A stretch of DNA of 20,000 nt, from contig NC_057749.1 in the NCBI RefSeq assembly GCF_004010195.1, positions 8,366,057 to 8,386,056 of the forward strand, in the 5' to 3' direction. Each line of letters begins with the position of its first letter. Position 1 is the first letter of the stretch. Under the pieces are notes generated by a model. It worked only from the letters and a program-made list of their open reading frames with translations. It had not been told where the DNA came from and searched no databases. Source of the DNA: Chiloscyllium plagiosum. Lineage: Eukaryota. Shown one piece after another: positions 996-20,000 of the stretch. Position numbers and translations under genes: made by a program.

Positions 996-1130
996 GAAAA
1001 CAGGAAGAACTGCGGATGCTGTAAATCAGAAACAAAAACAGAAATTGCTGGGAAAGCTCAGCAGGTCTGGCAGCATCTGTGGAGAGAAATCAGAGTTAAC
1101 ATTTTGGGTTCAATAACTCTCCCTCAGAAT
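996..1130 (-). mobile_element. Penelope-like terminal repeat (pLTR) fragment with decayed hammerhead motif
   Basis: Shares CAGCAGGTCTGGCAGCATCTG..AGAGTTAAC with 2680-2928, 8166-8377 and 9651-9775. Minus strand reads TTCTGAGGGAGAGTTATTGAACCCAAAATGTTAACT, a degenerate CUGANGA..GAAACGUU. Confidence 0.65.
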
Positions 1131-1254
1131 CAACAGAAAGGTTTCTCAGCGGCATTCCAATAGGATATGGGAGCCATTTCTACATTACTGTACAGAACAA
1201 TGTTATGACATAAGCCCCATTAGTTACAAGATATGTCAAAGAGATGAAGACTAA

Positions 1255-1455
1255 TATATATGTTTGTATGTGTGATTGCAATTATGTACATATGTGAACA
1301 GGTGGATAATTTTGGGTGTATTATGTATGTATTATTTTATGTTTTTGTGTTAATTTGTCTATGTTGTAATGCATGCTGTTATGTATACATGCATTGTTTG
1401 TGTTTTATTGTGCATGTGTGCTGTTTTATATGCTATTATGTGAGTTTATGTTATT
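1255..1455. repeat. Low-complexity T/G/A-rich (TG/TATG-like) degenerate microsatellite
   Basis: Runs of tgtatg/tgtgt/ttatg with almost no C. Confidence 0.8.
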
Positions 1456-1492
1456 GGACAGAGGTTCTGTCTGTGCTTGATGTTCAACAACA

Positions 1493-1992
1493 CACAAGTC
1501 AGGGGTGTGATGGAATACTCCTCACCTGCAGTTGGGTTCTGCTCCAACAACACTCAAGAAGATTGACACCATCCAGGACAAAGCAGCCTGTTTAATTGGC
1601 AGCAACATCCTCGAATTTCCACCACCGACACTCAGTGGCAGTAATGTCTACCATCAACAAGATGCACTGCAGTATCTCACCGAGGCTCCTCCAATCAGTC
1701 CTTCCAAAGCCAACTGCTACCACCTGGAAGGACAAGGGTGTGTAGGATATGTAGGAACACAATCATCTGTAAGTTCCCCTCCAAGCAACTCACCATCCTG
1801 CTTGGGAAATATATCACCATTCCTTAAGTGTGGCGAGGTCAAAATCCTGGAACACCCTCCCTAAGTGACAGTGGGTCTATCTGTCAATGGACTTCAGTGC
1901 TTCAAGAAGGGGACTCATTATCACTTTTTCACGTGCAAGTAAAGATAGATAATAAATGCTGGTTGAGCTAGTGACACCCACTGGAATAAAAA
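1493..1992 (+). mobile_element. 3' end of a decayed CR1/L2-group LINE (RT C-terminus plus 3' UTR)
   Basis: Translates QVRGVMEYS.. then SAPTTLKKIDTIQDKAACLIG, with a frameshift between them; this is a typical post-RT thumb motif. Ends AATAAATGCTGG..GTGACACCCAC..AATAAAAA. Confidence 0.75.
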
Positions 1993-2679
1993 CACAAAAG
2001 TATTAGGTTGTGTAAGATGGCATATAAATGTAATTCTTTCTGCCTGTGAATATACATTTAAATAGAGTTAGATGCTTAGGGGATACACTTTACAGTTTGA
2101 GTTAACTTTGCCACTGTAATGCATCAGGTACCTAAAAATCATCTGACCAGCATTATAGAGGCTGGATTAACCCTTTAAACCCCCTTGTTTAAATCAGAGC
2201 GAATGGAGAACTGAGCAAAAGTGGCAAGGCCTCACCCACTGTTGTTACAGAATGCAATTATGCTCCAGCAAATAAAGCAAGACATTGCAACCTTTGAACA
2301 ATTAGTGACGCAGAAGATCATTTTACACATGACAGCGAAAGAAAAATAATCCTAGAAATTTGTCAGAACTGTCATGTTGCTTCTAATTTACAATCGTGAC
2401 AAATGCTACATTTTGCAATTTAAAATAAACTAACCTTCACCGTTGAATTACTTGAGTTGGATATAAAAGTACAGAATGTCTGTTCTGTATGAGAAACATA
2501 ACCAGTTACAAAACATTGCAGTATGTTCAGGGAGTTCAGAGAATTCAGAATTCTTCTGTTATCTTTTTTAACCCTTACCTTGCTGCTTTACAGCTATTAC
2601 AAAAGATTTTTTTCTCTTATGTGTTGGCCAATGGCCAAAAGAATACTGCAACTGACTCACAAATTCTCAATAAAAACCA

Positions 2680-2928
2680 ATAAAACAGCGGATACTGGAA
2701 AACAGGAATCAAATAAACCAGTTGGACGATAACCCAGTGTTGTGTACCTTCTGACTTTGTCCACCCAGTCCAACACTGGCGCCTCCACAGCATCTGCGGA
2801 GAGGAATCAGAGTTATAGTTTCAGGCCTGGTTCTGTAGAATGGTCACTGGCCCCAAAACGTTAACTCTCATTTCCCTCCACAGATGTTGCCAGACCTGTT
2901 CAATCTTTGCAGCAATTTCTGTTTGTGT
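2680..2928. mobile_element. Inverted pair of Penelope-like terminal repeats; left arm interrupted by another repeat fragment (~2708-2788)
   Basis: GCATCTGCGGAGAGGAATCAGAGTTA (~2790-2815) is the reverse complement of TTAACTCTCATTTCCCTCCACAGATGT (~2861-2887). Decayed hammerhead on + at 2829-2866. Confidence 0.65.
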
Positions 2929-3050
2929 CCCAAATTCTCTGTCCATGCTCCATTTGAACATGGCTTCATCGTTTGATGGAATTATGTACAGGAATGACAG
3001 ATTTAAGAGAAACAGTAGGCCTTTCAGCCCTTTAAGCCTATTTTGCCATT

Positions 3051-3396
3051 AGTGGGAGATGATGGCTACATGGTATTATCACCAAATTATTCATTCACAG
3101 ATCCAGATAATGAACTGGGGAGCATGGTTCAAATCCTAACACAGCAGATGGCTGAATTTGAATTTGATAAAAATCTGAAATGAATGATATTAATTTCTAT
3201 CAACTTAATTGTTGGGGAAATACCCATCTGGTTTATTGATGTCCCTTAGGGAAGGAAACTGCTGTCCCTACCTGGGCTGGGCTACATGAGATTCCAGGCC
3301 ACAGCCTCTTACCTAACGTCTGGGCATTGAGGGATAAGCAGCAAATGTTGGCCTGACCACTGACTCCTACAGCTCTTGAGTGATTCTTTTTTAAAT
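3051..3396 (+). mobile_element. tRNA-derived SINE (second shark family) inserted into an old CR1 3' end (flanks ~2990-3050 and ~3398-3560, minus)
   Basis: B-box-like GGTTCAAATCC at ~3126, then GATGGCTGAATTTGAATT and CCCATCTGGTT..TAGGGAAGGAAA. Same family at 4783-4990 (+), 5110-5312 (-) and 19225-19348 (-). Confidence 0.7.
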
Positions 3397-3615
3397 ATAA
3401 GGTCATGGCTGATCTGATTGTGATCTCAACTCCACTTTCATATCTGCCAAATTTCCTACCCCTCCCCCAACCCACCCCAACAATAACCCTCAACTCCATC
3501 ACCCAGCAAAAATAACCTAACTCTTAGAGTTACTCTTGGATCTGTCTCCAGCAGAATATTCCAGAAACCTGGCCGATGGTTAGCCCTCAGACAACATCAT
3601 TGCCTTCTTAGGACC

Positions 3616-3780
3616 ATGCTGCTGTTTGGGGGATCTTGTTGCGCGTAAATCTGGCTGCCATATTTCTGCATGTTACATCAGTGACTACATCAAAAAGTAC
3701 TCAATTGGCTGTGATGGGGTTTGGAGCATTCTGAGATCATAAGCAGATGCTATAGAAATCCACATGTTCCCTTTTTCTCT
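3616..3780 (+). mobile_element. Deu-domain SINE 3' part (AmnSINE1/SacSINE1-like)
   Basis: TGCTGTTTGGGGGATCTTGTTGCGCGTAAATCTGGCTGCC..CAGTGACTACATCAAAAAGTAC..ATTGGCTGTG..GCTATAGAAAT matches the recalled Deu-SINE tail. Confidence 0.7.
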
Positions 3781-3835
3781 AGAAAATGGCCAGTCAGAAA
3801 TTTCTCATGTGAAGCTGGAAATCATATTCAAGGAA

Positions 3836-4343
3836 AGTAGAATCATAGGCATAGAGACGTATAGCATGGAAACAGACCCTTCAGTTCAAATCGTCCATGC
3901 CAGCCAGATATGCAACCTAATCCTGTCCCATTTCCATACGCGCACCACCCTCTGCGTAAAAATGTTATCCCTTAGGTCACTTTTAAATCTTTCCCTTCTC
4001 ACCTCAAACCTATGCCCTAAATCTGTTTACCCTATCCATACCCCTCATGATTTTATGAACCTGTATAAGGTCACCCCTCAGCCTCCGATGCTCCAGGGAA
4101 ACCAACCCCAGCCTATTCAGCCTTTCTCTATAGCTCAAATCCTCCAACCCTGGCAAGATCCTTGTAAATCTTTTCTGAACCCTTTCAAGTTTGACAACAT
4201 CCTTCCAATAGGAGGGAGACCAGAATTGCACACAATATTCCAAAAATCGCTTATCCAATGTCCTGTACAGTCGCAACATGACCTCCCAACTCCTATGCTC
4301 AATGCTCTGACCAATAAAGGAAAGGAAGCCAAACGCCTTCTTC
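3836..4343 (-). mobile_element. CR1/HER1-type LINE 3' fragment, 5'-truncated, with internal deletion
   Basis: ORF 4010-4279(-) reads LYRTL..LEYCVQFWSPSYWKDVVKLERVQKRFTRILPGLEDLSYRERLNRLGLVSLEHRRLRGDLI, the CR1 ORF2 C-terminus. Tail CTCTATGCCTATGATTC on minus. Confidence 0.92.
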
Positions 4344-4346
4344 AGT

Positions 4347-4569
4347 AGTCGAGACTGTGTTGCTGGTAAAGCACATCAGGTCAGGCAGCATCTGAAGAGC
4401 AGGAGAATCGATGTGTTGGGCATAAGCCCTTCATCATGATTCCTGATTAAGGGTTTATGCGCGAGACACCGATTCTCCTGCTCCTCGGATGCTGCCTGAC
4501 CTGCTGTGCTTTTTCAGCACCACACTCTCAACTCTGACCTCTAGCATCTGCAGTCCTCAGTTTCTCCTA
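4347..4569. mobile_element. Palindromic element made of two inverted Penelope-like terminal repeats (~190-bp hairpin plus 3' tail)
   Basis: 4347-4436 is the reverse complement of ~4442-4533. Only the right arm continues into the CTCTAGCATCTGCAGTCCTCAGTTTCTCC tail. Confidence 0.8.
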
Positions 4570-4782
4570 ATCTTCTTGTTTAAGGGTTCAAGTCCCACCT
4601 TGTTTGGAATGTGCCATAAAATGGCTGACCAAATTAAGTTTCTTTCATTATTAATTTCCTGTTACACTACAGAAAGCAGCGGTCAATCCTACATAAGGCA
4701 GACCCATTTAGCAATGGGCTAATTGATCATTTAATTTATTTAACATACAGTCATTGAGGGATAAGTATTGGTCAATTTACTT

Positions 4783-4990
4783 AAAAACCCATCTGGTTCA
4801 TTAATGCCCTTTAGGGAAGGAAACCGGTCATCCTTACCTGGTCTTGCCTACATGTGACTCTAGACCCACAATAATGTTGAGTTACACTCATCTGCCTTCT
4901 GGAATGGCCTTGGAAACCTCTCAGTTCAAGAGCACAAAGAGATGGTCAATACTTACTGGATCCTGCCTGTGACATCCACATCCCATGAAA
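4783..4990 (+). mobile_element. 3' half of the tRNA-SINE family seen at 3051-3396
   Basis: AAAAACCCATCTGGTTCATTAATGCCCTTTAGGGAAGGAAA..CCTACATGTGACTC..GACATCCACATCCCATGAA. Confidence 0.7.
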
Positions 4991-5109
4991 GGTGAACTAC
5001 AAGGTTTAACATTGTGCCCAAGAACCTGCACATCCTGAAACAGTGAAACACTGCCAGTGTTAGCCTGAATTATGAGCTCATGCGTGTGTGTCAGTGAACC
5101 TACAACCTG

Positions 5110-5312
5110 TCAGCCAGACCAGGAAAGGATGGCAGTTTCCTTCCCGCAAGAGCATTAGTGAACAAGATTTCATGGGCTCCATTAGTTTAGATTAATGTCA
5201 GAATTTGTTTTAAATTAAATTCAAATTCCGTCATGGCAGGATTTGAACCCACGTGCCCAGAATGTTATCTGGCTCTCTGGCTTAAATAGCCCAGCAATAG
5301 TATCACAAGGTC
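5110..5312 (-). mobile_element. 5' part of the same tRNA-SINE family
   Basis: GGATTTGAACCC (minus-strand B-box), AATTCAAATTCC and CAGTTTCCTTCCC. Confidence 0.6.
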
Positions 5313-5318
5313 ATTAGG

Positions 5319-5417
5319 TAAAAACGAGGACTGCAGACGCTGGAAACCCAAGTCTGGATTAGAGTGTTGCTGGAAAAGCACAGCAGGTCAGGCAGCATCC
5401 AAGGAGCAGGAAAATCG
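5319..5417 (-). mobile_element. Penelope-like terminal repeat fragment, truncated near the hammerhead position
   Basis: GAGGACTGCAGACGCTGG..GCTGGAAAAGCACAGCAGGTCAGGCAGCATCCAAGGAGCAGGAAAATCG; same family as 19778-19877. Confidence 0.75.
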
Positions 5418-5461
5418 TTGCCTCCCTTTGGCTGTGGAGGCTGTGATCTACCTACCAGATC

Positions 5462-5598
5462 ATTGGAAAGCAAAAGTGAGAAGTGCAGATTCCAGAGATT
5501 AGAGTCAAGAGTGTGGTACTGGAAGAGCACAGCAGGTCAGGCAGCATCCAAGGAGCAGGATAATCAACGTTTTGGGCAAAAGCCCTTCATCAGGAGAG
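5462..5598 (-). mobile_element. Solo Penelope-like terminal repeat with hammerhead motif and 10-bp target-site duplication
   Basis: CTACCAGATC at 5452-5461 and 5599-5608. Minus strand reads CCTGATGAAGGGCTTTTGCCCAAAACGTTGAT. Confidence 0.8.
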
Positions 5599-5884
5599 CT
5601 ACCAGATCTCTACCCAGTGTAGAATGCACATAGGTTAAAGTTCAGTATTCAGACCCTCTGACATGTTCTTCCAGCCCAGCTAGCCCACCAACAGCAATGG
5701 TTCTGTACTTCACACCATGTGAGCTATCAATAGACGGAGCAAGGAAACCGAGAGGGAGAGCAAAACCACATTTTGGCAGGTAATCTAGTCTGAAAACTGA
5801 TCACCCAGTTCAAAATAACACTGGTATGGAAGCTTAGAACGACATGCACAGCACTGGGAGTGACCTGAGAAGATAGGAGCAAGC

Positions 5885-5965
5885 AGCTAAGGGAAATATA
5901 TTGTCAAAGCTTTTTAATCCTGTGCTAGTCAGGGCAAATACAAGAATGCCAAATCTCAAATGATC
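5885..5965 (-). mobile_element. Second Penelope-like family 3' end (decayed hammerhead, AAGCUU stem III)
   Basis: Minus strand TTTGGCATTCTTGTATTTGCCCTGACTAGCACAGGATTAAAAAGCTTTGACAA; homologous to 6863-6914 and 18877-18927. Confidence 0.55.
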
Positions 5966-6127
5966 ACAACAATATATGCCGCAGGAGAAAAGGGTGTGAC
6001 TGGTCCACTTGGAATGACTAAGATGTTGGCATGGAGGAAAAATCAGATCATTAAACTTGGATGTATTCCCTGATATTAAACATATGCCACCTCTTGCAAG
6101 CACAAATGAGTTAAACCTTTATTGATC

Positions 6128-6710
6128 AATGCATTGAGTACAGGAGTTGAGAAGTCACTGTACAGGACATTGGTTAGGCCACTTTTGGAATATTGCATGC
6201 AGTCATGGTCTCCTTGCAATTGAAAGACTATTGTGAAACTTGAAAGGGTTCAGAAAAGATTTACAAGGATGTTGCCAAGGTTGGAGGGTTTGAGCTACAG
6301 AGAGAAGTTGAATAGGGTGGGACTGTTTCAGCTGGAGCACCGGAGGCTGAGGGGTGACTTTATCATGGTTTATAAAATCATGAGGGGCATGGATAGGGTA
6401 AATAGCCAAGGTCTTTATCTGTGGTGGGGGAGTCCAGAACTAGAGGGCATACCTTTGGGGTGAGAGATGTAAAAGGGACCTAAGGGGCAACTTTTTCATG
6501 CACAAGGTGGTGTGTGAATGGAATGAGCTGCCAGAGAAAGTGATGGAGGCTGGTACAATTGCAACATTTAGAAGGCATCTGGATGGGTATATGAATGGGA
6601 AAGTTTTAGAGGGATATGGGTCAAATGCTGGAAAATGGAACTAGATTAATTAATGGACAAGTTGGACCAAAGGACTTGATTCCATGCTGTACAGCTCTAT
6701 GACTCTGACT
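6128..6710 (+). mobile_element. CR1/HER1-type LINE 3' fragment
   Basis: ORF 6233-6463 reads KLERVQKRFTRMLPRLEGLSYREKLNRVGLFQLEHRRLRGD. 3' UTR ends GCTGTACAGCTCTATGACTCTGACTC. Confidence 0.92.
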
Positions 6711-6794
6711 CCATCTTAAATTGTTGCGAGTTTAGCTATTGGTGCACTCAGTGCACTTCCTGATATCCCTTTGAGTTCACTGTTACTTTCTCAA

Positions 6795-6942
6795 TGGGCA
6801 GTACCTCAGCCAATCAGAGCCAAGTTGTCAACCAATCAGTATCTCTTTCCTCTGTAAAATAATTTGGCATTCTTGTACTTATCCTGATGAGAATGAGACA
6901 AAAAGCTTCAACAACGTATCTCTCTTTTCAACAATATTCAAA
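6795..6942 (+). mobile_element. Second Penelope-like family 3' end with hammerhead-like motif at 6879-6914
   Basis: CCAATCAG twice, then TTTGGCATTCTTGT, then TTATC-CTGATGA-GAATGAGAC-AAA-AAGCTTC-AACAA. Confidence 0.6.
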
Positions 6943-7429
6943 CGGAATGCCACCTATTTAAGAAAAATGAATCGGGTGAGGAGAATTTGTTTGTTTAATA
7001 AACTACACAGTGTGACTCCTGAACATCCCATCATCACCCACTGTGTTTTATCTGTTTTAGATATATAATCAGAATGTAATCTGTCATAAACCTCTCTGAA
7101 ATACAAGAACAATCAGTTCCTGTTGGGAAAATAACATTTAGTTTGAAATACAAGCACAGCTCCTGTGGCAGATTAAAGCAGTCGTTCCTCCATTATTTTC
7201 TTTGGGCCAACAATTTTGCTCACAAGGTAGAGGAGATCATTGCATTTTATGGCTAGAATGATAAAGTAACCAACATTGCCTGTAGTTCAATTAGCCCTCT
7301 GGTCTCTGAATCACAACATTGAAATTTTTAGTCTCATCTCAGACTTCAAAACAAACAGCCATGAAAGCTGAGGGACCAGTTCATCCATATGCAACAGCTT
7401 CACAAATGCATTACCTCAATGCCAATTCT

Positions 7430-7898
7430 TTGATTTTTGATTTTATTTGGTTTATTATTATCACATGTACCTACATACAGAGAAAAAAATTGTTTTGCAT
7501 GCAGTACAGGCAGATCATACTGTACAACGTGCATTAAGGTAACAGAACAGAGTGAGGGATACAATGTTATGGCTGCAGAGATGATGCACAAAGAACGAGG
7601 TCAACATTAAATTTAAAACTTGAAGTTCCTTTCAGAAGTTTAATAACAGCAGGGAAGAAGCTGTTCTTGAATCTGTCGGTATGTGTGTTTAAGCTTTTGT
7701 ATCTTCCATCTGACAGAACACGTTTGAAGCGATAATAACTGGGGTGGGAGGGGCGTTTGATGATCTCAAGACAACGAGAAGCGTAGATAGAGTCAATGGA
7801 TGGAAGGTTGGTTTGTGTGATGGACTGGGCTGTGTTCACAACTCTCTGTAGTTTCTTATGGTCCTGGGCAGAGCAGTTGCCATATCAAGCTGTGATGC
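7430..7898 (-). mobile_element. Rex1/Babar-like LINE 3' fragment
   Basis: ORF 7567-7839(-) reads TAQSITQTNLPSIDSIYASRCL..IIKRPSHP..GRYKSLNTHTDRFKNSFFPAVIKLL, the Rex1/Babar C-terminal motif. Degenerate (AAATC)n tail. Confidence 0.8.
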
Positions 7899-7899
7899 A

Positions 7900-8160
7900 T
7901 ATAAAAGCAATGCAGCAGCCAATCTGTGAACAGGAAGATCCCACAAGCAATGTGATGATTGCCACCCTATCTCTCACAACGTTGATTGAAGGTAAAGTAT
8001 CAAATGGTAGAGGATGACCTTTTTGTCACCTATGAATAGTTTTGTGAAAACTTTGAGCATGAAATTGATTCAACATTGCACCCACAATTCCCCAGTCCAT
8101 CTCCTCATCAATGCTGCACTGGAGTAAAAGCTCAACTTTTAAAGTGGGACTTCAACCCTC
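7900..8160 (-). mobile_element. Decayed Deu-domain SINE
   Basis: GCAGCCAATCTGTGAACAGGAAGATCCCACAAGCAATGTGATGA (reverse complement of the Deu tail) through GCTGCACTGGAG..GTGGGACTTCAACCC (reverse complement of the tRNA head). Confidence 0.6.
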
Positions 8161-8165
8161 AGTGA

Positions 8166-8377
8166 AATAAAGCAAAAAAAACCCGCAGATGCTGGAAATC
8201 TGAAATTCAACAGGTCTGGCAGCATCTACGCACAGAGAGAAGCAGCGTTAATGTTTCGAGTCCAGTGACTCGTCACCATTTCTGAAAAGTCACCAGACTC
8301 AAACCCTTAACTCTGCTTTCTCCACACAAATGCTGCTAGACCTGCTGAGTTTCTCCAGCAATCTTTGCTTTTGTTTA
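8166..8377. mobile_element. Inverted pair of Penelope-like terminal repeats
   Basis: CAGGTCTGGCAGCATCT..GCAGCGTTAA versus TTAACTCTGCTTTCTCCACACAAATGCTGCTAGACCTG. Only the left arm has the GCAGATGCTGG tail. Confidence 0.7.
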
Positions 8378-9107
8378 TGAACTCTCTATCAACCAAGCCA
8401 AGATAATAGGGTCTATGAGCATTGCATCTGTTGAAAAGCAAATCAAATTTGTTCAACAATTTTGCAGTCCTACTGTCTTTTTTGCACTAAGTATCCTTTT
8501 GTTTTTAAACCCACCACCAACTCACCCAATCATTTAATCTAAAACAAGCAATAAGTTACAAACATTGCCCACTAGGGCAGTGCAACAATAACAAAGGGGA
8601 CAGGTGGGGAAAGAGGAAGATGTTAAATTAAAACCAAGTTGGAGGGGGTACTCCAACTCCCATGGTGCCCACCTCTCTCTAATTGCTTACTAAGTGCAAT
8701 CCTTTCGGTGCAATACCTCTAACAAAACACCCGGGCTTCCTGCAACCTTCATCTATTTTTAACTCAACCTGTTTAGTTATTTCGTAACATACCTCTGAAC
8801 CAGTTTTATATTCTCTAATCTGCCAATGTCAACAGGTCTGGCAGCATCTACGCACAGAGAAACATTTGGTCCCTCCAAAAGACCTATCCATTTGCCTGGA
8901 TCATTAACATTGGGCAGCCTAGTGAAGATCTTGCATGTTGTATGTCAGAGATACTGCTTGGTTCACCAGTGGGTGAACAGATGCTTACACTGAAGCAGAC
9001 ACCCGACAAAACGTGTGAATAGCATGCACTTTTTCATTATTTGTTCATGGGACTTTTCTCCTTTCAGAAACTCCTTACAGAAACTCATTTCAATTCTGAA
9101 GAAGAGT

Positions 9108-9635
9108 GATTTGATTTGATTTGATTTGACTTATTATCATCACAGGCACTGAGATACAGTGAAATGTATTGTTTTGCGTGCTATCCAGGCAAATCATACC
9201 TTACAATAAGTACATCTGTGTTATAGAACAGAATGCAGAATATTGTATTACCGTGAGAGAGAAGATGTAGAGAAAGATCAATTCTAATATATGAGAGGTC
9301 CGTTCATAAGTCTGATAACAGCAGGGAAGAAGCTGTTCTAGATTCTATTGGTACACCCTTTCAAAGATGGTAGATGGTAAAAGAGAGTATAACCGATGTG
9401 GGGAGGATCTTTGTCTGCTTCCCCAAGGCAGCAGGAAGTGCAAACGGAGTCAATGGATGGAAGGCTGGCTTTCCTGATGGACTGAACTGTGTTCACAGCT
9501 CTCTGTAATTTCTTGCAGTCTTGGGCAGGGCAGTTGCCATACCAAGCGGTGATAGGATCCAGATAGGATGCGTTCTATGGTGCACCTATAAAATTTGGTA
9601 AGAGTCATCGTTGACATGCCAAATTTCCTCAATCT
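9108..9635 (-). mobile_element. Rex1/Babar-like LINE 3' fragment with (AAATC)n tail
   Basis: RKFGMSTMTLTKFYRCTIERILSG (ORF 9450-9632). Homologous to 7430-7898. (GATTT)4 at 9108-9128. Confidence 0.8.
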
Positions 9636-9650
9636 TCTAAGGGAGATTTG

Positions 9651-9775
9651 GAGTCATAGCGGACATGAAACATTAACTCAGTCTCTCTCGCCACAGAAGC
9701 TGCCAGACCTGCTGACTTTCTCCAGAAATATCTGTGGTTGCCACTGACTTCCAGCATCCACAGTATCTTGCTTTG
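9651..9775 (+). mobile_element. Penelope-like terminal repeat, 3' part (5' part at 9092-9110, split by the LINE)
   Basis: GAGTCATAGCGGACATGAAACATTAACTC..GCTGCCAGACCTGCTGAC..TTCCAGCATCCACAGTA. Confidence 0.65.
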
Positions 9776-11680: not shown

Positions 11681-12416
11681 CCCCCACAACCAGCATTGGT
11701 AATAAAGCATTAACAGATTGGCGGTGATTGTGTGATCTTACCTCATGCTATATAGCTGCACCATTGATACACTCAAGAAGAACTGTACATCAATGTAATT
11801 CAGAATGGGAAACCCTGGGGATTTATCTAAGGGAAGTGAGAGTCTGCTATATAAATGCCAACTTGCGTTGACTTTTAAATCAGTTTTAATAAATTATACT
11901 GGCTATATTTTCTGTTTTCCATAGCTTAGATAAGCTGCAGATTTATTTAGATTTTCGCATCAATGTGCAGTGTGTCATACCGAGTAAAGTTCCATCGAAA
12001 ACTGGAGTAAAGAAATCACATTTACAAGGAAGTACCATCACGAGTGGCCAAAATCTGAAGACAGGGTGAGAGCAGGGATAACGAACCAGAACAAAACTAT
12101 GGTCAGCCAAATGATTGAAGAAGTTTTATTGTGAGATCACACAAAGGAGTCTCTCGAGATTCTGTGACAAGAACCGAGCTGTGAACCGAGCTAATGGGTT
12201 TTGTGCAGGAGTGTGCTGTTTGGTCGAGGGTGATCAGTTGATGCGCAGCTACCCTTGCAGATAGCTCAAGAATCAAATCCATTGAGTGAAAGAACTGGGA
12301 GAGCCTACCTTCCAGCAGCTGACAAAAGACTGAGATTGCAATGCACGCCCATAACAGCTAAGAACCAGGCATAATATTGTATACACACAGCACTTGGAGC
12401 CCTTTAAGGTGACCAT

Positions 12417-13096
12417 TCATAGAATCCCTACAATGCAGAATCAAGCCATTCAGCCCATTGAGTCCACACCAACCCCGTGAAGAGTATCACACCCAACCAC
12501 CACCTTCACCCTATGTCGCAACATTTCCTATGGCTAATCTATCTAGCCTGCACATCCCTGGACACTATGGACAATCTACCTAACCTGCATATCTTTGGAC
12601 TACGGGATGAAACTGGAGCACCCGGAGAAAACCCACACAGACATGGGGAGGATGTGCAAACTCCAAATGGGCGGCATGGTGGCACAGTGGTTAGCACTGC
12701 TGCCTCACAGCGCCAGAGACCCGGGTTCAATTCCCGCCTCAGGCGACTGTCTGTGTGGAGTTTGCACGTTCTCCCCGTATCTGTGTGGGTTTCCCCTCGG
12801 GTGCTCCGGTTTCCTCCCACAGTCCAAAGATGTGCAGGTCAGGTGAATTGGCCATGCTAAATTGCCTGTAGTGTTAGGTAAGGGGTAAATGTAGGGGTAT
12901 GGGTGGGTTACGCTTCGGCGGGTCGGTGTGGACTTGTTGGGCCGAAGGGCCTCTTTCCACACTGTAATGTAATCTAATCTAATCTAATGTAATCTAATCT
13001 AATCAAATTTACTAACAAGTCGCCTGAGGCTGGAATCGAACACAGGTCCCTGGTGCTCTGAGGCAGCAGTGCTAACCACTGACCCACCGAACCACC
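12417..13096 (-). mobile_element. Older HE1-type V-SINE (12417-12668 plus 13009-13096), split by a younger HE1
   Basis: Tail TCATAGAATCCCTAC; V-domain reverse complement GAAACTGGAGCACCCGGAGAAAACCCAC..GTGCAAACTCC. The head resumes at GTCGCCTGAGGCTGGAATCGAAC..GGCAGCAGTGCTAACCACTG. Confidence 0.85.
12669..13004 (+). mobile_element. Young full-length HE1-type tRNA-derived V-SINE with (TAATC)n tail
   Basis: A-box GTGGCACAGTGG, B-box GGTTCAATTCC, V-domain GTGTGGAGTTTGCACGTTCTCCCCG..GGGTGCTCCGGTTTCCTCCCACAGTCCAAAGA, HER1/CR1-like tail GGGCCGAAGGGCC, CpGs retained. Confidence 0.92.
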
Positions 13097-13585
13097 TTGC
13101 CCACAAAATGGCGTTACTAAACAAACTTTGGCACAAATAATCTCCAACTACCTCCAAACATCCCCAGATCCTCAGTCCCACCAACAATGTGATTATCCAA
13201 CGATTGTAAATGGCTGACAAGGCGAGTCTATCTTTCTAATCATCAAAATGTGGACAAAGGTATTTTACATTGCCATGTTTTGAGTTAATGGAATTTGTTT
13301 TCACTTATGAAAGCTTGTTTTAACATATGAAGGCCCAGTCCCCACCAAGCCTACTGCAATATTAAAATGACCAGTAATTTATGACCAACCCAAACCCCTG
13401 CATTCACACCATCTCCTGAGGTAGACACCAAACAATTCCAAAGAACAGGAGAAAGAAAATTCCTCTCCTTCGTGGGCAATTGAAAGCACCCAAATAGATC
13501 ACACTCAGCAAACATCAGGACGATGTGTGATGAGATTTCTACCCCAACCTATCACCAAGACCTATTCCAAACCGTTTCCAGTGCT

Positions 13586-14472
13586 GAGTTGAAAAGTGTG
13601 GCGCTGGAAAAGCACGGCAGATCAGCCGCCATCCAACATTTCGGGCATAGGCCCTGCATCAGTAATGTAGGGGAGGGAAGGGAGGGCTGAGAGATAAATA
13701 GGAGAGGGCTGCTGGGGCTGTGGGGAAGGTAGGTGGGATGGGTATGGGGGGATAATTGTGATAGGTCAATGGGGAGGTGGAGTGGATAGGTGGATAGGAA
13801 GATAGACAGGTAGATCAGGTCAAGATAGTGCCAACTTGGAGGGCTGGGTCTGGATGTGGTGGGGGGAAGGGGAAATTGACGTTGATGACGTGTGGTGGGA
13901 ACGTCCTAAAGCAGAAGATGAGGCGTTCTTCCCCCAGGTTTCGGGTGGCTTGGGTTTGGCAGTGGAAGTGGCCCAGGACTTGCATGTCCTTGGTGGAGTG
14001 GGAGGGGAAGTTGAAGTGGTCGGCCACAGGGCAGTGGGGCTGTTTGGTACGGGTGTCCTGGAGATGTTCCCTGAAATGCTCCACAGGTTGGCGTTCTGTC
14101 TCCCTGATGTAGAGGAGACCACATCGAGAGCAACGGACGAAGTAGATGAGGTGAGTAGATGTGCGGGAAAATATCTGCCAGGTGTGAAAAGATCTTTTGG
14201 GGGCTTGGACAGAGGTGAGGGGGGAGGTGTGTTTGTAGGTTTTACACCACTTGCGGTGGCAAGGGAAGGTACCAGGAGTCAAGGGTAGGTTGGTGGGGGA
14301 GTAGACCTAATGAGGGAGTCATTAGGAGTCGCAGAGGGAAAGGTCTCTATAGAATGCAGGTAGGGTTGGGGAGGGAAATATATCTCTGATGGTGGGGTCT
14401 GATTGTACAATCCTACAGAGATGTCACCATACAGAACTCTAACTCTCCAGCATCTGCAGTACTCACTTTCTC
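13586..14472 (-). mobile_element. Penelope-like retroelement 3' portion: decayed GIY-YIG endonuclease, 3' UTR and pLTR; the 3' tail is inverted at 14435-14472
   Basis: ORF 13815-14282(-) reads PGTFPCHRKWCKTY..STHLIYFVRCSRCGLLYIRETERQPVEHFREH..PVADHFN..HS, i.e. a decayed Cys linker plus the IY..C..C..YIGET..R..EH GIY-YIG signature. pLTR at 13586-13665. Confidence 0.88.
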
Positions 14473-14792
14473 TCAGTTCCAATTCTGGAATGGACACATT
14501 TACTAAAAGACCTGGCCCTGCCAGTGAAATGATATGTGAGGAAAATGGCTAAGTCAGAGCAGACAGTTTGCAGCAAGGATACAACTTAATGGGTATAACC
14601 ATGACTTTGCTGAACTGTGGGTGAGATCTCTGGTATAGGTACATGATAATCAGAGATGGTATGACATGTCTGTGGAACAGGCAGAACTTAACCCAGACAT
14701 CATTCGAAAAAGAATGGATTAAATTATATAAAATGGACAACACAGCCAAAGGCCATACTGTCTAACTAGTACCACTGATGTTGCTCCTCACA

Positions 14793-15152
14793 GGGGCAGC
14801 ATGGTGGCTCAGTGGTTAACACTACTGCCTCACAGCTGCAGGCACCTGAGTTCGATTCCACCACCAGTTGACTGTCTGTGTGGAGTTTGCACATTCTCCC
14901 TGTATCTGCGTGGATGTCTGCCAGGTGCTCAGGTTTCCTCCCACAGTCCAAAGATGTGTGGGTTAGATGGATTTGTCATGTTACATTGCCCTATAGTGTC
15001 CAGGGATGCGTACGTTAGCTGCCTAAGCTACGGGTCCTGCAGGGGTTACAGGGATAAGGTAGGGGGATGGGCCAGGGTGGGATACTGTTCAGAGGGACGG
15101 TGTGGACTTGTTGAACCGAATGCCCTGTTTCTACGCTGTGGGGATTCTATGA
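14793..15152 (+). mobile_element. HE1-type V-SINE, full length, older
   Basis: GGGGCAGCATGGTGGCTCAGTGGTTAAC (A-box), GAGTTCGATTCC (B-box), V-domain, tail GGGATTCTATGA. Confidence 0.9.
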
Positions 15153-15169
15153 AGTCTCCTCCTATCCTG

Positions 15170-15605
15170 CTTCACACAGCCTTATCGACATAAACGCCTG
15201 TTCCTTTCTGCTGCTTGTACTCAACTAGATTCTTCTTAAATGCATCTCCGCTGTTCCACACAACCACTCCTTGTGATGACAAGTACCGCTCTCCATCCAT
15301 TCTCTGGGGTTCTTCCTCAATTCCCATTTGGATTTTATCATGACTATCCCATACTTATGACCCTGAGCTATCCAATTAGTCTCACTTCCCTCCTCTTTCC
15401 CACAGCCTTGCAAGTTATTCCATTTCAAGTATGCATGCTATTTCCTTGAGAAACTTAGCATGGATGGATTTCCACCATCCTGTCAGCTGATACATTCCAT
15501 GCATAATTATTCGCTTTAAATAAAGCTAATTCTCCTCACCTCTGCTCCGGTTCCTTTCCAACTGATTTCCATTGGTTACTATCCCTCGTGCCACTGGAAA
15601 CAGCT
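15170..15605 (-). mobile_element. Highly decayed CR1-type LINE 3' fragments
   Basis: TTCTTAAATGCATC..ACAACCACTCCTTGTG.. and CTATCCAATTAGTCTCACTTCCC..CCCACAGCCTTGCAA resemble reverse-complemented CR1 3' ends. Confidence 0.45.
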
Positions 15606-15645
15606 TGCACTATGAAAAGCCTCTTTAGTGTGAGCACTGTTATTA

Positions 15646-15974
15646 ATCATAGAATCTCTACACTGTAAAGGCAGGCATTTGAAACCACATTGACCCTCCG
15701 GACTGCATCCCATTCAGACCCAATCCCAACTCTCTAGCCCGGCATTTCCCATGCCTAACCCACTTAGCCTGCAGATCCTTGGACACTATGGGCAATGTAG
15801 CATGGCTAATCCACCTAACCTGCACATCTTTGGGAGGAAACCGGAGCACCCAGAGGAAACCCATGCTGACACGGGGAGAATTTCTGCACAGGCAGTTGCC
15901 CTAAGCTGGAATCAAACCAAAGTCCCTGGCACTGTAAGGCAAGAATGCTAACCACTGAGCCAACATGCCACCCC
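15646..15974 (-). mobile_element. HE1-type V-SINE, full length
   Basis: ATCATAGAATCTCTACACTG..TAGCATGGCTAATCCACCTAACCTGCACATCTTTGG..GGAAACCGGAGCACCC..GCTAACCACTGAGCCAACATGCCACCCC. Confidence 0.9.
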
Positions 15975-16730
15975 GTACGCTCCTCAGTTTTAAGGAGAGC
16001 AACCTTTGTTTCTCCACTATCTCTGTCTCTGTGCAGATTAGGTCTTTCATTTTTGATTCATTTCTGGAAAATCTCATCTGCAGTCCCTCTAAGGAATTCA
16101 ACATCACTGAAAAACCTATGCCCAAAACTAAACACAAAAATACTCCCAGCTGAGACCAAACCAACTTCAACAGTTTTGACAATAAAATCATCAATGATGT
16201 AAAATAAAAATTTTCTCTTCAATATGCCCTGAACATCTGAGGCCTAGTGAGCTACCTTCAAAGAAAATGTTGTGTAAATATTTCTCATACATAATTTAGA
16301 ACCAGGACTCCGATGAGGAACAGTACAGTTTTGATATCAAAAATACAATGATTTGATGTTATTAAACTTGCATAGCCTCATTCAGAGCTCAGCTAACTAT
16401 ATATATAAATCAAATGTTAACTACACCCTCATTCATATCTGTTCGCTTCATCATAGACTTTGTTGTATTTTGCTTTTGAAAAGATCATTTTATCATTCAA
16501 AGTGTTTTCACAGTTCACAAGCAACGAATGACATTTTAATGCTGTCACCTGCTGAGCTGTAAATGTCAAAGAAACCTGTCTGGAACAGACTGGGGAGCAT
16601 TTAATATGGGAAAAGTTTTCAAAACCATGGATAAAGTCAGTTTGGATAAATATGAGAGAATGAAATGGTGTCAATTCCAACCACTACACTTGGTAATACA
16701 GGGTATTAATATGCTGAAAAAAACACAACA

Positions 16731-17553
16731 CAGATTGTTTTGCTATAACGCGATAGTTGTGTTCTTCTGCAACCTTTCGCATAGAAAATCATGCAATGGA
16801 AAACTGCTGTAGAAACCCGCATTATGGAAAAATGCTATAGAAAATCACGCGTTATGGAAAACTGCTACAGAAACCCTCATTATGGAAAACTGCTATTGAA
16901 AATCACACAATGGAAAACTGCTATAGAAAATCGTACTATGGAAAGCTGCTACAGGAAATCGCGCAATGGAAAATTGCTACAGAAACTCACGCAATGGAAA
17001 ACTGCTGTAGAAAATCACAATATGGAAAATTGTGATAGAAAATCATGCTATAAAACTGTGATAGAAAATTGTGTTATGCTATAGAAAATCACGCGTTATG
17101 GAAAACTGCTATAGAAACCTGTGTTATGAAACACTGCTATAGAAAATCGGACTATGAAAAACTGCTATAGATAATCGCGTCAGGGAAAACCACTATAAAA
17201 AATCATGCCATAGAAAACTGCTATAGAAAACTGCTATAGAAACTTGTGCTATGGAAAACTGCAATAGAAAATCACAAAATTGAAAACTGCAATAGAAAAT
17301 CACAATATGGAAAACTGCAATAGAAAATCACACTATGGAAAACTGTTATAGATAATCGCACTAGGCAAAACTGCTATAGAAAATCATGCTATGGAAAACT
17401 GCTACAGAAAATCACACTGTAGAAGATCGCTAATAGAAAATCGTTCTACCTATTCAGTAGAAAGTTTGCATTATCCTAACAAAGTCCACAATTTGTCAAT
17501 CACATTATAGCCAATTCGCACTGACTAAACATGCATTATAGCAGAACAGCTTG
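16731..17553. mobile_element. Tc1/mariner-pogo(Tigger)-type MITE with an internal minisatellite
   Basis: Imperfect TIRs: CA|CAGATTGTTTTGCTATAACGCG (16729-16752) versus the reverse complement of the right end, TA|CAAGCTGTTCTGCTATAATGCA (17532-17555); 17/24 identical. TA-type target site. Confidence 0.7.
16781..17447. repeat. Minisatellite, ~23 copies of a 28-bp dimeric unit ATGGAAAACTGCT + ATAGAAAATCRCRCT
   Basis: Units read directly, alternating 13-bp and 15-bp related monomers. Confidence 0.95.
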
Positions 17554-17589
17554 TACGTTTGTGTGCATCGGAAGTTACGTCTATCATAA

Positions 17590-18575
17590 CAACATAAGAA
17601 TCCTCGAGCAGGAGGAGGCTATTCCCCTTGAGCCTGTTCTCCTATCCAATATGATCATGGCTGACCTCATCTCGGCCTCGACTCTACTTTTCTAGCCATT
17701 GTCCACAACAGTGGAGGGTTTGAGTTATGAGGAGAGGTTGGGTCGGCTGGAGCTATTTTCATTGGAGCATAGGAAGTTGAGAGGTGACCTTATAGAAATT
17801 TATAAAATCATAAGGGGTATAGGTAAGGTGAATAGCAGGTGCATTTATCCTAGGGTGGGGGATTTCAAAAGTAGGGGTCATATTTTTAAGAGGAGAGGAG
17901 AAAGAATTTAAAAAGACATGAAGGGCATTTTTTTTACACAGAGAATAGTTCATGTGTGGAATGAACTTCCAGAGGAAGTGGTGGATCTGGGTACAGTTGC
18001 AACAGTTCAAAGACATTTGGATAAGTACATGAATAAGAAATGTTTGGAGGGATATGGACCAAGCGCAGGTGGGATGAGTTTTGTTTGAGATTATGGTTGG
18101 CCATGGACTGGTTGGACCAAAGGATCTGTTTCGGTGCAGTACGAATCTAAGACGCTTTAACCCTTCAAACCGATGCTAATTAAATATCTATCTCCCCCTT
18201 AAATTTACTCAAAGTCTTGGAATTGCACAGATCATAGGCACAGAGGAAACATATCTTGTATGTCTACTTTGTCAATCTCCTTTAGAGTCTTATATACCTC
18301 AATTAGAATCCTAATTCTTCTAAACTCCACAGAGTATGTGCCTAAACTACTCAATCCCTCACTGTAAGACACAGCCCTCATCGCTGAAATCAATTTAGTG
18401 AATTTCCTGTGAACTGTATCCAATGCAACTGTATCCCTCCTCAACTTAGGTGACCAACATTGTATTCAACACTCCAGGTGCAGTCTCACCAGTACCTTGT
18501 ACAGTTGCAGCAACACTTCCCTGTTTTTATACTCTGCTCCCTTAGCAAGAAACACCAAAATTACATTTGTCTTTC
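17590..18575 (-). mobile_element. Older CR1 LINE 3' region (17590-17700 and ~18155-18575), split by a younger CR1
   Basis: Tail AACATAAGAA..GAGCAGGAGGAGGCTATTC..ATGATCATGGCTGA. ORF 18232-18444(-) reads RRDTVALDTVHRKFTKLISAMRAVSYSEGLSSLGTYSVEFRR..LIEVYK. Confidence 0.8.
17705..18153 (+). mobile_element. CR1/HER1-type LINE 3' fragment
   Basis: ORF 17699-17911 reads EGLSYEERLGRLELFSLEHRKLRGDLIEIYKIIRG. 3' UTR ends GGTTGGACCAAAGGATCTGTTTCGGTGCAGTACGAATCTAAGAC. Confidence 0.9.
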
Positions 18576-18589
18576 TTCTTAATTTATCG

Positions 18590-18950
18590 ATAGACAGGGC
18601 CTTGTTCTTTGTAGACAGAAAGGACATATATGTATACAGCACCCTGTTTTAACTCAACAAAATAGGTGACAGCCATTTGCTGATTCATTTGTCAGGGCAA
18701 CACATTGATCAAACACTGTCAATCTGCCTTGTTCAAAAGTTAAACAAAGCTTGATGGTTAGCTGGCAATCATCATTGTCTAGTGTGTTCTTTATGACAAT
18801 GCCTTAATCAGAATCCTCATGCCAATCAATCAGCACTCTCCTCCCATATAATATAAATGTTGGTTTTCTCCTTAAATTGGTATTCTTGTGAACTGTCCTG
18901 AAAAGTGACAGACAAAGTTCTTCGACAAAATCATTTTCATCAATACTGCA
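18590..18950 (+). mobile_element. Second Penelope-like family: ORF C-terminus, 3' UTR and decayed hammerhead
   Basis: 18595-18621 translates QGLVLCRQK (recalled PLE C-terminal LCxQK motif). The 3' end is homologous to 6795-6942. Motif TGTC-CTGAAAA-GTGACAGAC-AAAG-TTCTTC-GACA at 18894-18927. Confidence 0.55.
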
Positions 18951-19224
18951 TTGTCCTTCCTTTTTTCTTGGGTGATAAAGCGAAAACTTCTATTCAGAAA
19001 CAAGATCTTTGGTAACATTAAAACATTCCAAAGTGCTTCTCTGCCAGACACTAATGAAGTGCACAACAGGCAATTTGTACAAAGTATTGCTCCACAAGCA
19101 ACAATCCTTTTCCCCGATAGTCTTGTGGGATAAGACATAACCCCCAAAGCCCCCCTTTCTTGGATGGGAGTAAATGATCCCTTTGAAGAAGCAGAGGGAA
19201 GGGTCTGCTCAGTCTCCTGCCAAT

Positions 19225-19348
19225 TCTGTTTCTATTGAATTCAAATTCCACCATCTGCTATAGTAGATTTCAATGCCGGGTCTGCAGAACAATACCTGGG
19301 TCACTGGATTAACTTTCCAGTAATAATGCCATTGGACCACTCCTGCCC
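19225..19348 (-). mobile_element. 5' part of the tRNA-SINE family of 3051-3396
   Basis: ATTGAATTCAAATTCCACCATCTGC..CTGGATTAAC..CCAGTAATAATGCCA. Confidence 0.6.
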
Positions 19349-19394
19349 AATTTGTAACCGAAACCACTAAATCAACTCATCTGATCATCATCAA

Positions 19395-19560
19395 AATGCT
19401 GTCCGTGGGATTTGTTGAGTTGCAACTACATGTCTGAGCTACACCTCAGAAGTGACCTTATCTAAAGCACTGCTGTGCTTTTCCAGCACCACACTTTTTG
19501 AATTTAGGGCAGCCTTCCATTTGTAAAAGGTGCTATATAAGTGCAAGTCTTCCTTTCTTT
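19395..19560 (+). mobile_element. Decayed Deu-SINE tail with a small pLTR fragment inserted (~19465-19500)
   Basis: TGCTGTCCGTGGGAT..CTACACCTCAGAAGT..GTAAAAGGTGCTATATAAGTGCAAGTCTT; insert CTGCTGTGCTTTTCCAGCACCACACT. Confidence 0.5.
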
Positions 19561-19777
19561 GTAGTAGCCAAGAAAGAAACATGTGTCATGTGAGCTATCC
19601 TATCTCCCATTCAGAGGGGAGTCAGGGTGTCTGTTTAATACCTCACTGGAAATGTCAATCCGATTGAGCACTCAAATTTCTGGATTAGGGCTTGAATCCA
19701 CAGTCTTGTACTTCAGAGGCAGAAAAAAAAGGCATTCTGAATCAGCAGTGAATCATCTCAACAAACAGTGCCCAAAA

Positions 19778-20000
19778 CTAAAATCTGGATTAGTGGTGCT
19801 AGAAGATCACAGCAGTTCAGGCAGCATCCAAGGAGCAGCGAAATCGACGTTTCGGGCAAAAGCCCTTCATCAGGAATAAAGGCAGTGAGTCTGAAGCGTG
19901 GAGAGATAAGCTAGAGGAGGGTAGGGGTGGGGAGAAAGTAGCATAGAGTACAATAGTTCAGTGGGGAAGGAGATGAAGGTGATAGGTCAGGGAGGAGAGG
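19778..20000 (-). mobile_element. Young Penelope-like element 3' end (pLTR plus 3' UTR), continues beyond the window
   Basis: Same layout as 13586-13830: pLTR followed by G-rich GAGAGATAAG..GGTGGGGAGAAAGTAG..GTGATAGGTCAG. CpGs retained. Confidence 0.85.
19841..19877 (-). ncRNA. Minimal type I hammerhead ribozyme motif (PLE-associated, dimer type)
   Basis: Minus-strand RNA AUUC-CUGAUGA-A-GGGC UUUU GCCC-GAAAC-GUC/GAUUU: complete catalytic core, 4-bp stem II, palindromic ACGU stem III. Predicted cleavage between 19846 and 19845. Stem I is weak (one U.U mismatch). Confidence 0.7.

Follow-up and report, generated by a model that had tools for sequence, protein, structure and literature searches.

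Introduction

A reverse transcriptase (RT) domain followed by a C-terminal GIY-YIG domain is the layout of Penelope-like elements (PLEs), and non-LTR (long terminal repeat) retrozymes are said to have been described from animals by Cervera and De la Pena in 2020. The present analysis concerns a stretch of 20,000 nucleotides (nt) of the shark Chiloscyllium plagiosum (assembly GCF_004010195.1, contig NC_057749.1, positions 8,366,057 to 8,386,056 of the forward strand), called the window hereafter, in which short repeated units carry hammerhead-type motifs. These motifs are read here as insertion relics of endonuclease-bearing PLEs whose last ~130 nt hold a minimal type-I hammerhead, an interpretation to which a probability of roughly 0.85 is given. 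PLE tails bearing minimal hammerhead ribozymes (min-HHRs) have been known since 2014, and what is added here is the scale of the population and its fossil record.

The closest described motifs are the min-HHRs of PLE pseudo-LTRs (Cervera and De la Pena 2014, PMC4209133). These show a helix III without a loop, palindromic positions 15.2–16.2, a short helix I, conservation of the G10.1–C11.1 pair and of one base that separates position 9 from 10.1, and, in a single genome, the existence of several families that covary. Their copies often occur singly or as close opposite-strand pairs, few of them being joined to full elements, and the motif numbers given are ~4,000 for the coelacanth and ~9,000 for Xenopus (PMC4209133). 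The insertion signature of PLEs, as given by Craig et al. (2021, PMC8557442), is that copies are truncated at the 5' end, that a second, inverted copy with the same kind of truncation lies next to them, and that one end bears a tail of 30–40 bp. In PAc, a Poseidon-type PLE of Anolis carolinensis, two internal RT start sites define the 30–40 bp tail, and in vitro the element's enzyme cuts each of the two target strands and extends it (Frangieh et al. 2024, PMC11167929). Non-LTR retrozymes are defined by head-to-tail arrays and give circular RNAs (Li et al. 2026, bioRxiv 10.64898/2026.07.22.740005).

The shark units resemble the min-HHRs of PMC4209133 in the boxes, the extra base, the G10.1–C11.1 pair, the loop-less palindrome, the short helix I, and the existence of several covarying families. 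Moreover, their copies are likewise mostly single or in opposite-strand pairs, with few on full elements. They differ from the Schistosoma families in that paper, which have a helix II of 7–8 bp, in that helix II of families A–C comprises 4–5 bp.

Hammerhead-Type Copies in the Window

Positions within family A are numbered on a reference copy (L004:1381-1675), in which CUGAUGA begins with its C at 121 and cleavage is predicted to separate 148 from 149. The eight main-family motif sites proposed in the initial annotation are all genuine copies of repeat families A or B, as judged by blastn with family references, and four further copies have been recognized, namely a family A copy at 5316–5417 (minus), family A fragments at 14437–14480 and 19469–19503, and a family C tail at 2710–2788. 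The copies and the associated reading frame are as follows:

1005..1140, minus: terminal unit of family B whose min-HHR (~1098–1130) is decayed (A9 to G, G12 to A, C15.2 to U); 77% identity over 125 nt to the B reference by blastn; sequence read.
2710..2788, plus: 5'-truncated family C tail without hammerhead; blastn to the C unit.
2788..2942, both strands: family B inverted pair with a short arm 2830–2788 (minus) and a long arm 2830–2942 (plus); decayed core at 2829–2866; blastn.
4343..4568, both strands: family A inverted pair, arms joining at 4439, both cores decayed; blastn, sequence read.
5316..5417, minus: family A copy that starts where cleavage is predicted (C17/G1.1) and is tailed at its 3' end, without hammerhead core; blastn.
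5462..5598, minus: solo unit of family A, its core altered only by G12 to A and by C17 to U; blastn, sequence read.
8204..8380, both strands: family B inverted pair, arms 8285–8204 (minus) and 8277–8380 (plus), both cores decayed; blastn.
9092..9753, plus: family B-like copy interrupted by a ~540-bp insertion at 9111–9650; repeat search, blastn, sequence read.
13598..13732, minus: family A unit with PLE 3' untranslated region (3'UTR), decayed core (A9 to C, C15.2 to U), 16-nt internal deletion, untailed end; blastn.
13815..14306, minus: remnant frame of the C-terminus of a likely PLE protein (Cys-rich linker, GIY-YIG-type region); 57% identity over 157 aa to the predicted protein P0001.
14437..14480, plus: inverted tail piece (tailed inverted arm) adjoining a 5'-truncated PLE copy; sequence read against other tails.
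19469..19503, plus: short family A fragment, reference positions 178–212; blastn.
19775..19993, minus: family A unit with PLE 3'UTR, untailed, holding the only intact min-HHR of the window at 19841–19877; blastn, descriptor.

The window copies are nearly all dead. Only one of ~11 holds an intact min-HHR, whose CUGAUGA runs from 19873 on the minus strand and which passes the full descriptor given below, and direct reading of the remaining copies reveals one to several core lesions in each. The CpG transitions suggested earlier, in which cGAAA becomes cAAAA (G12 to A), are indeed seen at three copies (5562–5596, 1098–1130, and 2829–2866). In the inverted pair at 4343–4568, the plus arm carries the tail (to reference 247) and the minus arm is untailed, stopping at ~201–214, while the solo unit at 5462–5598 is flanked on both sides by a 10-bp target-site duplication (TSD), CTACCAGATC (5452–5461 and 5599–5608). 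In the interrupted copy at 9092–9753, the box lies at 9096–9102, and GAAAC and the tail follow from 9651, the precise join being uncertain. A ~450-bp repeat is present twice in the window at ~80% identity (7436–7900 and 9115–9553), and its second member lies inside this interrupted copy. In addition, a 32-nt piece of a family B arm (8207–8238) recurs 622 nt downstream (8829–8860) at 100% identity, outside recognizable units.

Structural Comparison of the Hammerhead Families

The sense strand of families A and B reads CUGANGA, an extra A, a helix II of 4–5 bp, GAAA, ACGU without a loop, and then C or U. A descriptor made of the boxes, a bulge of 0–1 nt, a perfect helix II of 4–8 bp, GAAA, a paired 15.2/16.2, U, and H was applied to 220 kb, comprising the window and 20 random 10-kb loci of the genome. 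Thirteen matches were obtained, against none in the reversed sequence and none in each of five shuffles, which places the composite motif well above chance expectation. The bare CTGANGA box is not enriched in the window, where 12 were found and 14 expected.

The MAFFT alignment of the four families, A to D, was structurally wrong, and the helices of 11 intact copies were instead parsed by script; the outcome is a hand-parsed table and not a statistical covariation test:

Family A: 1.1:2.1 G-C; 15.2:16.2 C-G; helix II GGGC/GCCC.
Family B: 1.1:2.1 A-U; 15.2:16.2 C-G; helix II GGGUC/GACCC.
Family C: 1.1:2.1 G-C; 15.2:16.2 G-C; helix II GGAGC/GCUCC.
Family D: 1.1:2.1 U-A; 15.2:16.2 U-G; helix II of 7 bp.

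The CUGANGA and GAAA boxes, the type-I order, and an NUH cleavage triplet are present in all four families, which bears out the core that had been expected of a consensus. A single unpaired nucleotide separates A9 from 10.1 (A in families A, B, and C, and U in D), and helix II is closed by G10.1–C11.1 in families A, B, and C and by G–U in D. All three helices differ in their pair types across the families yet stay paired, helix II measuring 4, 5, or 7 bp with the boxes unchanged, in keeping with the earlier description of stem II as variable but paired. The loop of helix III is absent, its place being taken by the palindrome ACGU in families A and B and AGCU in C, and by AUGU (wobble, not palindromic) in D; therefore, helix III is possible only between two RNA copies. 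This comparison supports the assignment of the motifs to the hammerhead type, and specifically to the minimal kind found in PLEs, as putative ribozymes.

Association with Probable Penelope-Like Elements

Copies were sampled as the first 100 genome places of 53,139 exact matches to a 33-nt anchor downstream of the ribozyme, a position that makes the sample blind to the state of the 5' end. A total of 203 nt was taken around each place, and removal of one exact duplicate left 99 distinct copies. The whole-unit DNA search, on the other hand, covers the best 40 copies and is no random sample. At the loci around the first genome matches, the motif is embedded in a unit of ~130 nt whose 3' terminus is constant and lacks poly(A). 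Upstream of the unit, some copies continue into a common non-coding stretch, the PLE 3'UTR (loci L001–L008; 30 of the 99 sampled copies), and the window copies at 13598–13732 and 19775–19993 extend into it as well. The open reading frame (ORF) remnant at 13815–14306 (minus) stands behind one of these two.

This remnant was compared with P0001, a predicted protein of 486 residues, in which a GIY-YIG signal near the C-terminus (E 2.5e-4, 21.7 bits, cutoff 22.6) is preceded by an RVT_1 signal (E 7.7e-3, 16.4 bits, cutoff 29.6). A Pfam search of the window frame itself returned 0 families. The Cys-rich linker of P0001 has the form CX4CX2C, a kind ascribed in the literature to the Neptune and Nematis clades, where the element might accordingly be placed. 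Plainly observed here are the position of the unit directly downstream of the PLE 3'UTR and a GIY-YIG-type ORF, the frequent 5' truncation, and a 5'-truncated inverted copy that very often adjoins the 5' end. The sequence relationships support the view that the units represent the 3' end of a PLE with a GIY-YIG-type ORF. Similarly, the proposal that most copies are short, ORF-less retro-copies tied to PLEs agrees with their TSDs and with the sequence that they hold in common with the PLE 3' end.

Genome-Wide Abundance

The searched genome comprises 3.56 Gb, and reversed-pattern controls gave 0–8 matches. The fully intact family A motif, including the outer helix I letters, occurs 42,174 times (control 0), a number that rises to 160,737 when up to one mismatch is allowed (control 0). 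Moreover, the exact core of family B was found 3,024 times against 8 in the control, and the family C motif, with up to one mismatch, 47,610 times. The prediction that a shark genome of this kind would hold very many hammerhead motifs is borne out by family A alone, to which families B and C are added. Terminal units of the three families A–C account for 3.36% of a 192-kb sample of arbitrary, non-masked sequence, and scaling of the 67 distinct stranded arms in the sampled DNA leads to an estimate of ~1.2 million arms genome-wide. The 42,174 intact motifs in a single family exceed the numbers given in PMC4209133, a comparison between searches with different criteria.

Insertion Architecture and Comparison with Retrozymes

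The 3' ends of the 99 sampled copies fall into two classes ~40 nt apart, with 53 tailed (ending at ~247), 43 short (~200–221), and 3 elsewhere, and the predicted cut site lies about 55–70 and 99 nt from the two ends. Both outer ends were visible in 16 inverted pairs. Thirteen of these have one tailed and one untailed end, two combine a tailed sense arm with an inverted arm starting further in, one is untailed, and none is two-tailed. TSDs of 7–14 bp flank solo units as well as entire inverted pairs (L026:1746, L013, L024, L047, L056, L059, L072, L096, L106, L126, L128, and window 5452/5599). The adjoining inverted copies and the one-ended tail match the PLE signature as excerpted from PMC8557442. 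As in PAc (PMC11167929), the hammerhead is situated shortly upstream of two 3' sites that define a tail, and ends at the cut site are not seen in vivo; PAc, in which an ORF starts inside the unit, differs in having been studied biochemically, the shark units being known from their sequence.

Near-perfect inverted arms with TSDs, together with microRNA-precursor matches on the hairpins, could also be expected of fold-back DNA transposons similar to miniature inverted-repeat transposable elements that contain a hammerhead-like string by chance. However, the two arms of a hairpin differ in length, their ends fall at the two 3' sites also used by solo and ORF-attached copies, their inner junction is variable, single arms with their own TSDs are common, and the arms are identical to PLE tails, all of which renders this origin of the hairpin copies very improbable. 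The microRNA-like matches, the only ones returned by Rfam at E up to 10, are sub-threshold and confined to three palindromic stretches of the window, in which nothing matched at the gathering score. In annotation, the hairpins of these units should be labelled neither as microRNA precursors nor as novel ribozyme genes.

The units had initially been regarded as retrozyme-like. They do resemble the animal non-LTR retrozymes of Li et al. (2026) in that a type-I hammerhead resides on short, ORF-less repeats derived from a PLE terminus. In contrast to the head-to-tail arrays that define retrozymes there, intact joints in the whole 3.56 Gb are head-to-tail at 3 sites and head-to-head, within 15 nt, at 4,549. 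No array of hammerhead units was reported by TRF (Tandem Repeats Finder) in the window, and no tandem was present among 45 unit matches in 220 kb. The retrozyme analogy consequently fails on the point of arrays, and the counts of joints, tails, and starts set these elements cleanly apart from retrozymes.

The same counts agree with PLE integration in vitro, with two internal start sites, priming on both strands, and no requirement for cleavage. By analogy with the Anolis PLE, the enzyme would nick both target strands and prime reverse transcription at two internal sites of the RNA, and this two-site priming would leave a tail at one end as well as the fold-back pairs. The hammerhead, on the same analogy, would process multimeric or read-through transcripts as a protein-assisted dimer.

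Copy Starts, Predicted Cleavage and the Proposed Template RNA

Several observations weigh against reading the motifs as PLE relics that end in a hammerhead ribozyme. Firstly, the call of the PLE protein depends on sub-threshold Pfam scores, for which reason its identity is graded as likely. Secondly, helix I holds just three of four pairs in families A and C. Thirdly, no Rfam hammerhead family (type I, II, III, HH9, or HH10) was detected at E up to 10 in the window or in isolated intact copies. The Rfam hammerhead models contain a helix III hairpin, which the units lack, and since these models miss even intact copies, the motif is filed here under the published min-HHR descriptor and not under an Rfam family. 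Fourthly, in the lowest-energy fold of the family A monomer, helix II is formed but some bases of the CUGAUGA box pair with the region around the cleavage site. The minimum-energy fold of family B RNA has helix I and helix II with an open core, and folding z-scores are unremarkable for all unit RNAs folded. As modelled, these folds would fit a weak, dimer- or protein-dependent ribozyme and prove nothing.

The remaining difficulties concern the positions at which copies begin. The 5' ends of the 99 sampled copies are distributed as follows:

Continues into the PLE 3'UTR: 30 of 99 (28 to the view edge and 2 with a diverged 3'UTR, known by shared flanks).
Masked upstream: 9 of 99; additionally, L113 is masked up to its start at 117.
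Truncated within the 3'UTR: 1 of 99.
Starts at 111–123: 34 of 99.
Starts at 124–145: 16 of 99.
Starts at 146–150: 2 of 99.
Starts at 151–165: 6 of 99.

The near-identical pair L111/L112 is counted once within the 34, and the table sums to 98 plus that pair. Unlike in plain random truncation, the starts are clustered: of 58 truncated copies, 34 begin in a stretch of 13 positions (111–123) although 55 positions are visible, and the mode, 117, lies 4 nt upstream of CUGANGA rather than at the predicted cut site. Among these 34 copies, 15 adjoin an inverted arm and 19 have unique flanks, and the family B arms of the window likewise join 4 nt before CUGA. Judged from such non-random ends, about one in three copies was likely made from a discrete, short template RNA. 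The letters around the start, YYATTCC (TCAGTTC in family B), would fit the initiator consensus, YYANWYY, and a TATA-like string upstream of the unit is presumably a further consensus match. The non-random starts speak in favour of the initial annotation. Much of the swarm proposed there is ordinary PLE 5' truncation with adjacent inverted copies, given that 30 of the 99 copies continue into the 3'UTR and 9 more are masked upstream.

RNA reads were drawn from two raw poly(A) single-cell RNA runs (one of which gave 0 reads) and two contig sets, and mapped to a young copy. One run yielded 1,279 reads, divided roughly evenly between the strands, of which 95% continue into unrelated flanks. The commonest left boundary in the reads and contigs of three runs is the hot-spot base (L004:1497), with heterogeneous flanks, while on the right the boundaries most often coincide with the two 3' ends. 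No circular-type joint at the cut site was found in one poly(A) single-cell RNA run and two contig sets, a library type ill-suited to small circles, and no cut-site ends occurred among the mapped reads, although a poly(A) library says nothing firm on expression or cleavage. Separately, 31-letter words of the young family A unit were encountered in runs under four organism labels (seven studies), so that near-identical copies occur under more than a single label.

A separate non-autonomous short retroposon, similar to a retrozyme or to a short interspersed nuclear element (SINE), would account for the short units and the fold-backs if a dedicated RNA of ~90–130 nt, beginning 4 nt before CUGANGA, were copied in trans by PLE enzymes. 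Under a uniform spread over the 55 positions, ~14 starts would fall at 111–123 instead of 34; 6 of the 12 copies starting at 117 have unique flanks without an inverted arm, inverted arms stop at this same position, and the commonest left boundary of reads and contigs coincides with it. The same ends are nevertheless expected if the PLE enzyme primes internally on any transcript that begins in a PLE tail, and the short units equal the PLE 3' end letter for letter, subfamily by subfamily, and form no tandem arrays. A unit starting at 117 carries none of the upstream 3'UTR and is therefore probably dead on arrival, and reads on both strands that mostly run into unrelated flanks point to passive transcription. 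An independent retroposon is accordingly regarded as unlikely.

As PLE relics, the short units would arise as by-products when PLEs are active and would not constitute an element of their own. Many templates would be short RNAs with a 5' end ~4 nt upstream of CUGANGA, on which the enzyme would prime internally 90–130 nt downstream and run off at the 5' end of the short RNA. A more specific proposal, offered as speculation of rather low probability, is that this run-off RNA arises from the initiator-like YYATTCC at the outer end of helix I and that the process is self-feeding, in that every truncated PLE tail keeping some 3'UTR would fire such RNAs and give rise to new dead units and fold-backs. 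If this were true, a self-feeding by-product would have built more than 1 million arms (~3% of the genome), a larger population of ribozyme motifs than any yet described for a vertebrate, and it would lend in vivo support, at the scale of a genome, to two-site, two-strand priming by PLE enzymes.

If cleaved RNA were a common template, copies would be expected to start at 149. Starts at the cut site are not enriched among the 99 sampled copies, the two at 146–150 being no more than at neighbouring positions. A rough genome-wide test was restricted to copies in which none of the six letters preceding the start agrees with the family sequence, and it counted 143, 62, and 40 starts at 148, 149, and 150. 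The 148 class is mostly a recurrent 8-nt internal deletion, and ~24 of the 62 at 149 and 26 of the 40 at 150 are inverted-arm joints; after removal of such cases by eye, positions 148–150 are of similar size and no clear cut-site peak remains. Copies beginning at the predicted cut site do exist, for example at 5316–5417 in the window and L026:1746-1843 in the sample, the latter with a perfect TSD. The deletion itself defines a family A variant that lacks exactly the 8 nt GAAACGUC, with GCCC joined to GAUU, so that half of the catalytic core and the cut site are gone. This variant accounts for nearly half of the first 100 places listed for starts at 148.

The lack of an excess of insertions beginning at the cut site would be explained if the motif had the shape of a hammerhead without self-cleavage in vivo, and were kept as a recognition element of the PLE enzyme or as a rider. 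Metazoan min-HHRs are of low activity in vitro according to PMC4209133, the Anolis element inserts in vitro with no need for cleavage and no cut-site reads were found for it (PMC11167929), and PLE clades without hammerheads proliferate well in the account excerpted from PMC8557442. On the other side, protein-assisted cleavage with C3/G8 rescue has been shown for the Anolis element (PMC11167929), and the four diverged shark families keep all catalytic boxes while their stems change by compensatory pairs, a pattern that points to selection on the fold. Conservation of shape alone is considered unlikely.

Other Repeats in the Window

The second family of hammerheads proposed in the initial annotation is a genuine repeat, yet its helix II has 2 bp at most and no common fold is apparent. 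It is represented in the window by three copies, identified by repeat search and fold tests:

6861-6941, plus: 80-nt dispersed repeat, not hammerhead.
5880-5956, minus: 80-nt dispersed repeat, not hammerhead.
18875-18950, plus: 80-nt dispersed repeat, not hammerhead.

This repeat is dispersed in the genome at ~80% identity (40 matches scored of 233 candidates). Alignment of 15 copies shows CCUGAUGAG, UGCAAGA, and then, allowing for CpG decay, CGAAAAGCUUC, with a conserved complement of UGCAAG located upstream of the box. CUGAUGA is followed by GAAAAGCUUC once CpG decay is allowed, but helix II would have just 2 bp, and the hammerhead assignment was rejected. The consensus contains no helix II of at least 4 bp and has space for 2 bp only. 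No fold common to the copies emerged from RNAalifold, which gave −0.9 kcal/mol with 3 pairs, of which 0 were compensatory, and the repeat has no Rfam match. Its copies (loci L129–L140 and the window) have sharp ends, a UGAUGA box, and a T-run near the end, and a TATAAAT-like string lies ~30 nt upstream in many of them.

Several further repeats occupy the window. A minisatellite at 16781–17442, unrelated to the hammerhead units, consists of ~23 copies with a 70–80% match, the unit being 28 nt long and periods of 56 and 84 being scored as well. Direct and inverted copies of a repeat with a tRNA-like head (GGTGGCACAGTGGTTAGCACTGC...GGGTTCAATTCC), presumably a SINE family, are found at 12416–13100 and 14789–15975. 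Another repeat family, at 4023–4271, 6157–6405, and 17712–17835, has complementary arms (84% and 76%) and an open frame (...LEHRRLRGDLI.VYKIMRG...), and is probably the end of a different retroelement. Finally, the segment 11400–11615 is CpG-rich, with five CCGCGG sites in ~200 nt, within surrounding DNA that is CpG-poor.

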